Virus record (IMG/VR): IMGVR_UViG_3300029955_000001
DNA: 64,000 nt
Strand: one strand, 5' to 3'
Origin: a virus
Taxonomy: Duplodnaviria; Caudoviricetes
Below the pieces are notes generated by a model that saw only the letters and a program-made list of their open reading frames with translations, made no database searches and was not told where the DNA came from. Positions 45,865 to 51,344 of this stretch are shown piece by piece. Every line of letters begins with the position of its first letter. Position 1 is the stretch's first letter. Position numbers and translations under genes: made by a program.

Positions 45865-45965
45865 AATATTAATTTTTTTATATATCACACATGAATAGTG
45901 TGCGATGCAAATCACTTATTTTAGTGGTTTATTATTTTCTCAACAACTTACTAAGGATGTTAAAA

Positions 45966-46256
45966 ATGACTACACCTTTTCCGATTAAACGAAATGTTCT
46001 GCGTATGATTCATTGGTTGATTATAGCAGCATTGTTTTATTTTGTTGCTTATTGCTTATCAATCGACGAAGAGCTTCGTCAGCTTTCTACAATCTCTTGG
46101 AAACTCGGCAATGTAACTGTAGGCGGTTATGTGGGCTATTGGCTAGATAGGCATTTGTTCCAAACAAGGATAGATGACACTAGCCCGCCACTGTTACAGA
46201 TCAGGAGAGCCGTGATTGTGGCAGCTAGTATCTTTGCTGTATCGACAGGATTGTAA
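45966..46256 (+). CDS. Putative 2/3-transmembrane holin
   Basis: WKLGNVTVGGYVGYWLDRHLF and RRAVIVAASIFAVSTGL match the Holin_2-3 family signature; precedes the endolysin by 1 nt. Likely start ATG at 45966. Confidence 0.8.
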   Translation: MTTPFPIKRNVLRMIHWLIIAALFYFVAYCLSIDEELRQLSTISWKLGNVTVGGYVGYWLDRHLFQTRIDDTSPPLLQIRRAVIVAASIFAVSTGL

Positions 46257-46257
46257 A

Positions 46258-46965
46258 ATGAAACGCATCCTCTTATGTTTAGATAAGTGGGCGACTATTA
46301 TTTACGGGATTTTAATAGCTATTGTTTTATTGTTCGTTGTTGCGAATAGCGTATCTGCTGCTATCATCAATACACATAAACCAATAGTTAAACAATCAGT
46401 CCCACGGACCCCTGTAATTATGCTGCAATATAGAGCTGCGTTAACAAGAGAAGCACAGTTTGTTTACGGCATAAACGCACCTATCCCTATGTTCGCTGGT
46501 CAGATATGGCAAGAGTCCGGCGGTAAAGCAAATGCAAAGGCATGGGATTTAGGAATGGGGTTAGGACAATTCGAACCGGGCACAGCAAAAGAAATAGTGA
46601 AGTTGTATCCTGAATTAGGACCATCTGACCCTTTCAATCCTGTATGGTCAATACGGGCTTTGGTAAGATATGATGATTGGATATACAAGCGCGTTAAAGG
46701 CGTTAATGCATGTGAGGTGTGGGGTGGTAGCTTAGATGGCTACAACGCAGGTCTGGGGTATGTTCAGAAAGCTCAGAGAGCATCTCCTGATCCTACTGTC
46801 TGGTTTACTAAGACCGAATATGTGCCTACAGGCCAAACAGCCAAGAATAAAGAATACAGTCGTGTCTACCCACGAATTATTCTTTTTAAACACCAAGCTA
46901 TGTTTTCTACTTGGGGAGCATTAACGTGTTTACCGTATGTTCCAGTTGGTAAAAATTCTTTTTAA
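46258..46965 (+). CDS. SLT-type lytic transglycosylase (endolysin) with N-terminal TM segment
   Basis: QIWQESGG (catalytic Glu), GLGQFEPGTA, GYNAGLG; hydrophobic N-terminus could be a signal-anchor (SAR-like). Confidence 0.85.
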   Translation: MKRILLCLDKWATIIYGILIAIVLLFVVANSVSAAIINTHKPIVKQSVPRTPVIMLQYRAALTREAQFVYGINAPIPMFAGQIWQESGGKANAKAWDLGMGLGQFEPGTAKEIVKLYPELGPSDPFNPVWSIRALVRYDDWIYKRVKGVNACEVWGGSLDGYNAGLGYVQKAQRASPDPTVWFTKTEYVPTGQTAKNKEYSRVYPRIILFKHQAMFSTWGALTCLPYVPVGKNSF

Positions 46966-46985: not shown

Positions 46986-47037
46986 AACAAAAAAAATAGG
47001 CATAAAGTCAGAGAGAAAACTCTCTGACTTTATGCCG
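46986..47037. terminator. Bidirectional terminator with GGCATA/TATGCCG arms
   Basis: A-tract, then GGCATAAAGTCAGAGAG-aaaa-CTCTCTGACTTTATGCC. Confidence 0.85.
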
Positions 47038-47049
47038 TACAGTTAACTT

Positions 47050-47460
47050 CTAATCTCTCAGTTTTAAACCTTTATCAGCTAACGCTCTCTTTATTTGCTC
47101 AACGTCAACGTTGGATATGCGAGGCAGCTCTTTCAATAGCGATTCAGTTAGTAATGCTACATCGCCCACTGTATTAATACCAGATTTAATTAAATTATCT
47201 TCTAGTAAACGCGGTAGCCATAACATCACAACTGATTGGGTTAGTAGTGGTGTATTGATATTTTGTTCTGCTGTTACTTTTGCATTCCTATTAAAAAGAG
47301 ATTCGGCTTCTTCAAGATGCTTCCATGATTCTCTCATATGCCTTAAAACAATTTCTTCCCTTTCAATAGCAGTTGTTGATATTGATTCACCAGGGGTTAA
47401 TTGCGCCATTACTTGGTAATACGCTGCCTTAGCTAATAGTACAGCTATTTTATCATTCAT
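47050..47460 (-). CDS. Protein with RNAP alpha-CTD-like C-terminal domain (paralog 1)
   Basis: WLPRLLEDNLIKSGINTVGDVALLTESLLKELPRISNVDVEQIKRALADKGLKL matches the RpoA CTD pattern. Confidence 0.75.
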   Translation of the reverse strand: MNDKIAVLLAKAAYYQVMAQLTPGESISTTAIEREEIVLRHMRESWKHLEEAESLFNRNAKVTAEQNINTPLLTQSVVMLWLPRLLEDNLIKSGINTVGDVALLTESLLKELPRISNVDVEQIKRALADKGLKLRD

Positions 47461-47665
47461 GATTATCCTCTTTCTCTTTTTGTGTCTTATTTAATTTATC
47501 AAGTAACGCACTAGCATTACGTGTTAAAAGTTCTTCTGGTGTAGGTGGTTTATCAGTTAGAAATGTATCGTCGTAATATAGTTCTTTTCTACGAAATGGT
47601 AAATATAAAAATAGAAGTAATAAAATAACAAAAACAACAATCAAAAAGATCGTAAACGTATCCAA
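47453..47665 (-). CDS. Small membrane protein
   Basis: 70 aa, N-terminal TM helix. Confidence 0.7.
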   Translation of the reverse strand: MDTFTIFLIVVFVILLLLFLYLPFRRKELYYDDTFLTDKPPTPEELLTRNASALLDKLNKTQKEKEDNHE

Positions 47666-47667
47666 TT

Positions 47668-48000
47668 TTAAATACCCCTTTTTGCAATAACAATATAAGC
47701 CACCACGTCGTTTGCCTTCGGTTCCTTACCGTCCCATCTCCATCGGAAGTAATGAGCACTCAGACACTTCTCATCACCGTCTCTACGCTTAATCAATACA
47801 CGCGTATTCTTACTCACTGGTGAATCGCCCATTCCTAACCAGCATAACCATTCCCTATCTCCTTTTTTAACTTTCTTATGTTGAACAGGTATTAATAATT
47901 CTTTCAACGATGTCATCTCTTCCACCGTTATACCACAGCTCTCTAATTTTTTAATTAACGCAGTGGCTGCTGTTCTAATAAGCTCTGCTCTTGTTACCAC
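47668..48000 (-). CDS. Hypothetical protein
   Basis: 110 aa, AGGAG RBS; W-rich C-terminal domain (FRWRW...DVVAY). Confidence 0.7.
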   Translation of the reverse strand: MVTRAELIRTAATALIKKLESCGITVEEMTSLKELLIPVQHKKVKKGDREWLCWLGMGDSPVSKNTRVLIKRRDGDEKCLSAHYFRWRWDGKEPKANDVVAYIVIAKRGI

Positions 48001-48084
48001 AATACTCTCCTTTTAAATAAAGTATAAAAAATACATATCTGAAAAATGTATCTATGTATTTTTCTACTCTATCAATAATTACTA

Positions 48085-48137
48085 TGTAACACTACGCTAC
48101 TACTGGAACCTTCCCTAATCCCAGTAGTAGCGTAGAT
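48085..48137. terminator. Hairpin
   Basis: TACGCTACTACTGG-loop-CCAGTAGTAGCGTA just past the stop at 48144. Confidence 0.65.
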
Positions 48138-48143
48138 TCTCAT

Positions 48144-48581
48144 CTATGCCGGAAATGAATCAGGTCTTTTCCAATTAGGTAACTTCATCCCTAGCTTCAA
48201 ATTGTGTTCTGCTAGTGCTTTAGTAATTGTTAAAACATAAAGTGAATCCTCGCTTGTTGTATTTAATAACTTAGCCAGTGAATGTTTAGTCATCTGAACT
48301 AATTCACCAATGTAACTTACGTTATTAATAAACAATTTATTTTCTGTTTCTTTTGGCAATCCCAACACATTAACAGATAGACTGTAGTAACATGGTTCAG
48401 CTTTAGGAACACCCATCCAATCCAAGTATTTATCAGCAGCATTGAATAATTGTTCTGCTAAATCAAACTGCGCGTATGCTAAAACAGTCTCTTTACGTTC
48501 GTAAAGAATTCTACCTTTTTCAAAATGATATTTCGCTCTATCTACTAGCAATTGAAAACGTGCATTCATTTCCATTCTCAT
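48144..48581 (-). CDS. Protein with RNAP alpha-CTD-like C-terminal domain (paralog 2)
   Basis: LPKETENKLFINNVSYIGELVQMT...LAEHNLKLGMKLPNWKRP versus E. coli RpoA [24 protein letters not shown]...LASRGLSLGMRLENWPP. Confidence 0.8.
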   Translation of the reverse strand: MRMEMNARFQLLVDRAKYHFEKGRILYERKETVLAYAQFDLAEQLFNAADKYLDWMGVPKAEPCYYSLSVNVLGLPKETENKLFINNVSYIGELVQMTKHSLAKLLNTTSEDSLYVLTITKALAEHNLKLGMKLPNWKRPDSFPA

Positions 48582-48650
48582 TTATTTAAAAAACAATTAC
48601 ACTATAACTATATCAAAGTAATTATATATGTCTGAATTATTTTGTATTAA

Positions 48651-48850
48651 CGGCATAATAGCTAGGTAGTTATACCTAGCTAAATATAAAGTAAAATACA
48701 AAGTCAAAAGACAAGAAGTGAGATATTGCTTTAAAGCAATATCTAGGTAATAGACACAACTGGACACCTAGGGCGCAGCCTCCGTCTGACGCAGACCGGA
48801 TGGTCACGATACATCCCTGCTCGTGACAAATGATACTCCTTGCCTGTAAA
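48651..48850. ncRNA. Candidate structured RNA / multi-hairpin intergenic element
   Basis: Hairpin 48659-48682, perfect palindrome 48721-48744, and GC-rich stems CCGTCTG/CAGACCGG and GTCACGA/TCGTGAC in an AT-rich gap. Confidence 0.3.
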
Positions 48851-48946
48851 AAAAAAATATATTTTATTTCATTACACAACAAAACGGAATATAGCCTCTC
48901 TATACCATCCAAGTAAGTGGACAGTACAAAGAGACTAGATATTATT

Positions 48947-49261
48947 TTAAACGTCTTGTGGGGTCGGTAAACGTGGTACACGGCGACGTTCTTTATACTT
49001 CACAGTCACCTTCTCTATCTCTACACTAGGTCCAGCGATACGCATCAATCTCCAGTCATCACTGGTAGATATATCCACCAGACCATGTGTTTCAAACGCA
49101 CTCGTTCGTATTCGCTCTCGATATTGGCAAAACCATACTACTCTACCATCTTCTGTGGGTATTTGTTTAATAACCTCACAAATCTTATCCTGATTTTCCT
49201 TATAGACAGGATGAACCAACATAGCGATATCCCCTACTCCCACATTCACGTTATTCTCCAA
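48947..49261 (-). CDS. Hypothetical protein
   Basis: 104 aa with an SH3/KOW-like start (VGVGDIAMLV). Confidence 0.7.
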   Translation of the reverse strand: MENNVNVGVGDIAMLVHPVYKENQDKICEVIKQIPTEDGRVVWFCQYRERIRTSAFETHGLVDISTSDDWRLMRIAGPSVEIEKVTVKYKERRRVPRLPTPQDV

Positions 49262-49606
49262 TTAAAGTTTATACGATGGATCAAAATCAGGTAACTCAAT
49301 TAGCTTACCTGCTAATTCATGTTCACAATCTGAAAGGTATTGTATTTTACCATCTGTAACAATACAGTGACACTGAGAGCGTTCTACTTTAGGGCCATCT
49401 GGATTATCCCAATCCACAGGTTCAGAATACGTTTCATGAAAAGAAGGAGTAAATGTAGGAAGAAAAGGATTATAGTTGAACGTCCAGTGAGGGCCTTTTG
49501 TAAAAACTGTTTTTAACAGCATTACGTGAGCGCACTGACATCCAGGGCACCAATACGCAATACAACCACCTTCCAATAATCTTAATTTACTACCGATCAT
49601 GTTCAT
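49262..49606 (-). CDS. DUF6527-like Cys/His metal-binding protein
   Basis: CPGCQCAH...WTFN...TFTPS...CHCIVTDGKIQYLSDCEHELAG. Confidence 0.75.
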   Translation of the reverse strand: MNMIGSKLRLLEGGCIAYWCPGCQCAHVMLLKTVFTKGPHWTFNYNPFLPTFTPSFHETYSEPVDWDNPDGPKVERSQCHCIVTDGKIQYLSDCEHELAGKLIELPDFDPSYKL

Positions 49607-51023: not shown

Positions 51024-51344
51024 CTATGGAGTACTTGGCTGACTATAAATAGCTTGTTGCTGTTTTACCCAAGCACGTAGTTGTGATAAACGGTGATTGC
51101 ATTCAAGTGTGTTTTTTGTCTGAGTATTAAATTTCGTTGACAGTATAGCTACTCGTTCACGTTCTGATGCTGCCATGAATGCAGTCATATTTGGCGGCGG
51201 TTCTACTAGACAATTCAAGATCAAGTTATCTGGTGGCGGAACTAATGTAGGACGGTCTACAATGACTTGTTTTGGAGATGTAGTTGCGCATGCTGTTAAA
51301 AATAAAACAGACGTTAATAAAACTACTTTAAGAATGGCTTTCAT
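51024..51344 (-). CDS. Outer-membrane lipoprotein, o-spanin (Rz1-like)
   Basis: Signal peptide with lipobox LTA|C19, Pro-rich PTLVPPPDNLILNC. Confidence 0.75.
   Translation of the reverse strand: MKAILKVVLLTSVLFLTACATTSPKQVIVDRPTLVPPPDNLILNCLVEPPPNMTAFMAASERERVAILSTKFNTQTKNTLECNHRLSQLRAWVKQQQAIYSQPSTP

Follow-up and report, generated by a model that had tools for sequence, protein, structure and literature searches.

In the alpha subunit of RNA polymerase (RNAP), the C-terminal domain (alpha-CTD) is a hub that links many bacterial activators, UP elements and NusA to the polymerase. In Escherichia coli RpoA it covers residues 249-329 (PDB 3K4G, 1LB2 and 3N97; PF03118), comprises two helix-hairpin-helix (HhH) motifs, ends in a proteobacterial-type LGM+L.NW tail and is carried on a flexible linker attached to the alpha N-terminal domain. 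Here we describe two phage proteins, P0001 and P0002, encoded on the minus strand at 47050..48581 of a 64,000-nt stretch of viral DNA (hereafter the window), which corresponds to G000:C1:14946-78945 of a 165-kb IMG/VR record (IMGVR_UViG_3300029955_000001). Both proteins are predicted to keep the alpha-CTD fold, likewise on a flexible linker, and appear to have lost its DNA contacts; what is new here is a pair of duplicated phage alpha-CTD proteins, stripped of these contacts, in a phage with RNAPs of its own.

Small phage alpha-CTD proteins are common in the databases, and no study of them was found in the papers searched. They comprise proteins of ~125-140 aa from uncultured Caudovirales, annotated as "RNA polymerase, alpha subunit, C-terminal" (e.g., BFVD A0A6J5QDR9), and proteins of Rhodococcus phage Finch, Mycobacterium phage Mithril, Bacillus phage Goe8 (Goe8_c00050) and Microbacterium phage Mazun (gp26). 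Like P0001 and P0002 they are short and join a non-alpha helical N-terminus to the alpha-CTD fold, and a structural search of BFVD found full-length look-alikes of our proteins among them; however, their N-terminal domains have no detectable sequence relation to those of P0001 and P0002, which moreover stand apart from the other phage copies as a paralog pair encoded by a jumbo phage with polymerases of its own. Dozens of viral contigs of 50-130 kb (L036, L041-L072; many from sample 3300045988) encode a further architecture, a recurrent 332-aa protein in which an HTH-like (helix-turn-helix) N-terminus and a sigma-region-4-like middle precede an alpha-CTD whose DNA-contact residues are intact.

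Outside RNAP the fold also occurs in bacterial proteins of 6-11 tandem alpha-CTD-like repeats (P0007, P0008, P0011 and P0028), several with signal-peptide-like N-termini, an apparently unstudied use of it. Beyond its own family, P0001 finds its best sequence matches (E 1e-14 to 1e-10) among such proteins (e.g., P0007 and P0008), and in these repeats R265 and K298 are often replaced, as in P0001 and P0002; they are, however, long, multi-repeat, cellular proteins devoid of the helical hairpin that precedes the alpha-CTD fold in P0001 and P0002. The known phage attack on alpha-CTD is enzymatic: T4 Alt and ModA ADP-ribosylate R265 of the host alpha, and neutralising alpha-CTD is thus an established phage tactic (PMC5312081; PMC9638938). 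The likeness to our proteins is a possible functional analogy at most, in the early loss of alpha-CTD-dependent host transcription, since Alt and ModA are enzymes modifying host alpha, without sequence or structural relation to P0001 and P0002.

Both genes are real open frames on the minus strand, as the preliminary description, made from the DNA letters, had reported. P0001 (47050..47460) encodes 136 aa. The frame of P0002 (48144..48581) encodes 145 aa, and its true start is probably the fifth codon at 48569 (141 aa, MNARF...): the four homologues all open with MN, and the public gene call agrees with this start. The two proteins align over their whole length (26% identity, E 3e-7; BLASTP, single comparison), which establishes their paralogy, and the alignment spans the N-terminal strings that had been quoted as related. 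The top Pfam match of both is PF03118, at 18.3 bits for P0001 and 16.9 bits for P0002, neither of which reaches the curated cut-off of 23.8 bits. Their membership follows by transitive homology, because P0013 passes at 53.4 bits and P0052 at 31.1 bits. P0013, a 145-aa full-length homologue from another contig, came to light when P0001 was run exhaustively with HMMER against 1.8 billion representatives; it is 35-37% identical to P0001 by two measures and aligns with P0002 at E 2e-9. P0052 (200 aa), from the phage that encodes P0001 and P0002, is its third protein with an alpha-CTD; it is encoded on the plus strand (L025:20621-21223) ~32 kb before the window start on the 288-kb contigs, and fuses an MJ1673-like N-domain (PF27247, from a precomputed table) to an alpha-CTD without the last helix. 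Furthermore, P0002 hits the alpha-CTDs of solved RpoA structures at E 1e-4 (HMMER), with its LGMKLPNW aligned with E. coli LGMRLENW, the motif that had caught attention in the second frame, and the family profile matches genuine RpoA fragments at E 3e-7 (5.8 billion proteins). A tblastn search of deposited phage genomes with P0013 returned mostly host rpoA in mislabelled records, along with the alpha-CTD proteins of Goe8 and Mazun. We also observed a stand-alone 133-aa alpha-CTD protein, P0042 (L019:1513-1914, plus strand), which adjoins a ScpA gene on a bacterial-looking contig and whose tail (LGMKLPDWKSPVS) closely resembles the P0002 tail (LGMKLPNWKRPDS); this likeness may hint at the lineage of the captured phage domain.

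The AlphaFold2 (AF2) model of P0001 comprises an N-terminal helical hairpin (residues 1-66, nt 47263-47460, with helices at 3-19 and 28-65), a low-confidence linker (residues 63-68) and a C-terminal domain (residues 72-136, nt 47053-47247) with a predicted local distance difference test score (pLDDT) of 80-86. All of its 50 best PDB matches are alpha-CTDs, with a root-mean-square deviation (rmsd) of 0.8-1.1 Å over ~65 residues and template modelling (TM) scores by target of 0.76-0.93, figures to be read knowing that the 25-row alignment behind the model contained genuine alpha-CTDs. Compared directly, P0001 and the RpoA alpha-CTD are ~30% identical and superpose at ~1 Å rmsd over 65 residues. 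A generic HhH fold, which the preliminary description had named as one outcome that would overturn it, is ruled out because every top PDB match of the P0001 model is an alpha-CTD. The P0002 domain (residues 69-138, nt 48168-48377, with the C-terminal LGMKLPNW tail) follows a hairpin at about nt 48402-48569, and its ESM Atlas model independently matches alpha-CTD clusters (TM by matched row ≤0.73); a single-sequence AF2 model of P0002, with a C-domain pLDDT of ~30, was not used. The models and the homology to P0013 together indicate that both C-domains adopt the alpha-CTD fold specifically, and in each protein a flexible linker joins this fold to an N-terminal helical hairpin that is an orphan.

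The hairpin takes the place of the alpha N-terminal dimerisation and assembly domain (PF01000/PF01193), which is not attached to either protein. Neither protein has a PHROGs family, pattern scans of IMG/VR with P0001 and P0002 found no relatives, word-indexed searches in which P0002, the family profile and an N-domain profile were compared with 5.8 billion proteins retrieved only the four sequence clusters of the family and RpoA fragments, and the Atlas search with the N-domain returned nothing. The hairpin thus appears to be an orphan domain, with no relatives detectable outside the family in these searches. A coiled coil of the GreA/DksA type, entering the secondary channel, was considered and set aside, given the unequal helices (17 and 38 residues) and the absence of a sequence signal. 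Prediction of a two-copy complex of the P0001 hairpin gave a score of 0.02, which weighs neither for nor against self-association. The hairpin can evidently stand alone: P0017, encoded on the plus strand of a related phiKZ-like jumbo-phage contig (L014:6001-6198), is an N-domain-only homologue of 65 aa, 47% identical to the N-domain of P0001, with no alpha-CTD remnant downstream of its gene. Since the homologue in that contig is the hairpin alone, the N-domain is the most conserved element of the family.

In order to compare the surfaces of the domain, we mapped residues by a HMMER alignment to E. coli alpha-CTD and by MAFFT alignments, with E. coli numbering throughout and the determinants defined as in PMC1874639. 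The 265 determinant (R265, N268, C269, N294, G296, K298 and S299), which contacts DNA and also NusA-AR2 and SoxS/MarA, is not preserved in either protein. P0001 carries R265L, N268D, C269N, N294R, G296S, K298V and S299D, with RISNVD as its loop. P0002 carries R265E, C269K and G296T and retains N268, N294 and S299; K297/K298 are replaced by S and E/D, the loop reads NTTSEDS, and the second hairpin is longer by three inserted residues. The replacement of R265 by L or E and the two altered loops, read by eye in the preliminary description, are therefore borne out by both kinds of alignment. Beside the lost R265, both paralogs have a basic residue at 264 (R in P0001).

Of 12 metagenomic RpoA fragments, all have R265, N268, C269 and G296, while 11 retain N294, 11 retain S299 and 10 retain K298. 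A survey of other viral copies gave the same picture: in 30 distinct IMG/VR viral alpha-CTD ORFs (open reading frames), sampled with a peptide pattern lying outside these positions, though confirmed by tblastn against the canonical P0013, G296 is present in all and R265 in 29, with K in the remaining one. The sampled viral copies keep R265, N294 and G296, whereas P0001 and P0002 keep neither R265 nor G296, and P0052, from the same phage, keeps R265, N268, N294, G296, R297 and K298. Because the RpoA fragments and the 30 viral copies keep R265 and G296, the loss of DNA-contact residues in P0001 and P0002 is both real and unusual among viral copies. Both paralogs share the derived features P263, a basic 264, E267 and an acidic residue at 298/299, suggesting that the DNA face was remodelled before the duplication and retained afterwards. 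Since the UP-element residues are replaced by neutral or acidic ones, P0001 and P0002 should not bind DNA as alpha does.

The source is a divergent phiKZ-like jumbo phage, because the window carries genes of phiKZ type (virion genes, DUF7193/7194/7208 genes and one for an internal head protein) and the closest deposited relative, Burkholderia phage FLC9, is only 51% identical in one conserved protein. Near-identical contigs of up to ~288 kb come from peat and permafrost metagenomes. The phage encodes pieces of multisubunit RNAP (phrog_2986 and phrog_3233), and the alpha N-terminal domain (PF01193, PF01000) has no match anywhere in the 165-kb record, consistent with the earlier view that its polymerases lack alpha. 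The locus, P0001 and P0002 had no match in 50,697 deposited phage genomes (blastn and tblastn), while the core proteins of the phage have matches in 303 phiKZ-like records; for this reason we regard the two genes as accessory. Both frames are intact, and P0002 is letter-identical, wherever they were compared across 22 or more contigs of various peat and permafrost samples.

A promoter-like 30-nt motif lies on the minus strand at 48618..48647, 37 nt before the P0002 frame, with the core TCAGACATATATAAT; its consensus is about TTCCAGAATATTTCAGACATATAT[A/T/C]AC, abbreviated also as TCAGACATATAT. Five high-score copies occur in the 165 kb, all intergenic, in a record with 11% intergenic DNA, and all on the minus strand, and four of the five stand upstream of small genes. 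In window-relative coordinates of the record (G000) the other strong copies are at 96754, 80069, 120288 and 82557, and weaker ones at 143858, 138921, 92361, 66610 and 144984. The 3′ half of the motif merges with ATATATCAC, found exactly at 16 sites, 11 of them intergenic. The motif resembles the AT-rich consensus AAATATATATTAT of the early promoters used by the virion RNAP of the jumbo phage AR9 (PMC5312081), and it is probably the promoter class of one phage RNAP. Such a motif upstream of P0002, common to other small minus-strand genes, would fit an accessory protein made early.

We tentatively favor the reading that P0001 and P0002 are DNA-blind adaptors with an alpha-CTD fold, made early and working by protein-protein contact, most likely with the host transcription apparatus; on the present evidence this is possible, though still short of probable. 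In this scenario a phage gene would have joined the orphan hairpin to a captured RNAP alpha-CTD and then been duplicated, giving a pair of accessory proteins of a phiKZ-like jumbo phage. The fold is kept, and neutral or acidic residues have replaced those that read the UP element. The flexibly tethered domain would serve as the adaptor and the hairpin as the docking or assembly module conserved in the family, with production from a promoter of the virion-RNAP type. The target could be a partner that reads alpha-CTD or RNAP itself, and the proteins would be remodelled binders that do not faithfully copy the classical surfaces (261, 265 or 287) as a decoy would. A stronger version, in which a nucleus-forming jumbo phage independent of host RNAP makes two early, DNA-blind alpha-CTD look-alikes that bind an activator, sigma region 4 or RNAP and so shut down or redirect host transcription, seems to us unlikely.

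Several observations weigh against a host-transcription target. The 261 determinant (D259 and E261, the sigma region 4 contact) is replaced by M and W in P0001 and by V and G in P0002, while position 261 is E or D in all 12 RpoA fragments. At the 287 determinant (T285, E286, V287, E288, G315, R317 and L318, the CRP AR1 contact) P0001 has T, E, S and L and ends before 317, and P0002 has T, K, H, S, G, K and L; this patch is partly kept, with V287/E288, of which E288 is invariant in the RpoA fragments, changed to S,L or H,S. Relative to RpoA, therefore, R265, G296, K298, E261 and V287/E288 are all replaced, and no known alpha-CTD partner patch appears conserved, which leaves mimicry of alpha a proposal. 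In addition, phages of the phiKZ type do not need the host RNAP, so that a target in host transcription is not required. P0013 retains a canonical face (R265, C269, N294, G296, R298, S299 and an acidic 261), from which it follows that the loss of DNA-contact residues is not a family trait; with P0013 keeping the DNA face and P0017 consisting of the N-domain alone, the conserved function may lie in the hairpin and be unrelated to alpha partners. Early expression of P0002 is suggested by the resemblance to AR9 promoters only. Contigs from four peat RNA libraries (three studies) cover P0001, P0002 and the neighboring genes, which is compatible with transcription but could also reflect DNA carry-over.

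These surfaces also bear on the proposal of the preliminary description that the proteins act as decoys sequestering host activators or elongation factors. It had assumed that NusA and MarA/SoxS use surfaces of alpha-CTD other than the DNA-binding one, which is incorrect: the title of Schweimer et al. (2011), cited in PMC6614797, places the binding of NusA-AR2 at the UP element site of alpha-CTD, and SoxS and MarA bind the 265 determinant (PMC9638938). Three of the proposed partners therefore use the very face that is lost, and, since a decoy must keep the surface read by its target and the 261 and 287 patches have diverged too, the idea of a decoy of host alpha-CTD comes out partly weakened.

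The same divergence of the classical host-partner patches would fit a role inside the phage, in which the hairpin docks on a phage complex (an alpha-less RNAP, or a replication or nucleus component) and the alpha-CTD-like domain acts as a flexible arm that recruits for phage rather than host processes. The phage RNAPs are without alpha, the N-domain is the most conserved element and occurs alone in a related jumbo phage, and the phage reuses the alpha-CTD module in a third, unrelated fusion (P0052). However, no deposited phiKZ-like genome has the family, so that the conserved RNAPs of these phages work without it, nor does any co-variation or conserved gene neighborhood tie the family to RNAP genes; we consider this explanation doubtful.

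If the remodelled, partly acidic face instead blocks a host protein such as a nuclease or a sensor, the pair would serve counter-defence or another form of takeover unrelated to transcription. Small accessory jumbo-phage genes with a probable early promoter would suit such a role, as would the acidification of the former DNA-binding face and the fusion of the third alpha-CTD copy to an MJ1673-like domain; the argument draws on the class of gene, no similarity to known anti-defence proteins was seen (PADLOC not searched), and we judge the explanation improbable. Of much the same low probability is that P0001 and P0002 are small DNA- or RNA-binding regulators which still hold nucleic acid through other residues, such as R/K264 and other lysines, in the manner of most other phage alpha-CTD proteins. 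Both paralogs do carry the basic 264, and P0013, P0052 and 29-30 of the 30 other viral copies keep the DNA-contact residues, but the second hairpin of our proteins has no glycine and has D/E in place of K298/S299, and in P0002 it bears the 3-residue insertion, together with E at 265. Decaying duplicates, whose alpha-CTD part drifted under relaxed selection without a function of its own, might be read from the divergence of all three classical determinants and from a relative, P0017, that lacks the domain altogether, but they are very improbable given two frames intact on the at least 22 contigs with P0002 unchanged to the letter, a hydrophobic core and fold preserved enough for a confident model, and regulatory signals proper to each gene.

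P0001 is the final gene of a three-gene unit, in which its start and the stop of the 70-aa gene before it overlap (ATGAATGA). That gene (47453..47665, minus strand) encodes a protein with one hydrophobic N-terminal segment and follows a 110-aa gene of phrog_9174 (47668..48000, minus strand), which is preceded by a degenerate copy of the promoter-like motif and is the probable first gene of the unit. Directly after P0001 we found a strong intrinsic terminator (46999..47036, minus strand; 17-bp stem and T run), which closes the minus-strand gene string and converges on plus-strand lysis genes. Directly 3′ of the P0002 stop codon lies an RNA hairpin without a U tract (48084..48143, minus strand), with a perfect 19-bp main stem at 48092-48135 (-32.8 kcal/mol, z -6.9). 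It is possibly the end or a processing site of a monocistronic P0002 transcript, where a phage RNAP may terminate or its product may be processed. An Rfam scan of the window gave nothing. A 101-aa ORF at 48676-48981 was set aside as probably spurious; it overlaps the end of the upstream gene and a spacer, 48680-48947, on which the four peat libraries have no RNA-library contigs.

The same minus-strand string contains a gene for a DUF6527 protein (PF20137; "BubE" in a precomputed table) at 49262-49606, two genes (~680 nt) upstream of P0002. On either side of the locus there are genes for lysis. Those at 45891-46965, on the plus strand, are a holin-like 96-121-aa gene and an SLT-domain transglycosylase (46216-46965), which has the deepest coverage by RNA-library contigs; on the other side, a LysC/Rz1-like spanin candidate lies at 51024-51344 on the minus strand.

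P0001 and P0002 represent a natural separation-of-function variant of alpha-CTD, with the fold kept and the DNA contacts removed, and P0013 and P0052, in which the contacts are kept, provide a ready comparison set for binding and function of phage alpha-CTD proteins. If the two proteins serve the alpha-less phage polymerases, they would illustrate how enzymes of this kind acquire regulatory arms. If their target is host transcription, they would constitute a new class of host-takeover proteins, and as look-alikes acting on it they would be the first viral protein shown to mimic the alpha C-terminal domain, which would hint at what the many unstudied alpha-CTD proteins of other phages do.

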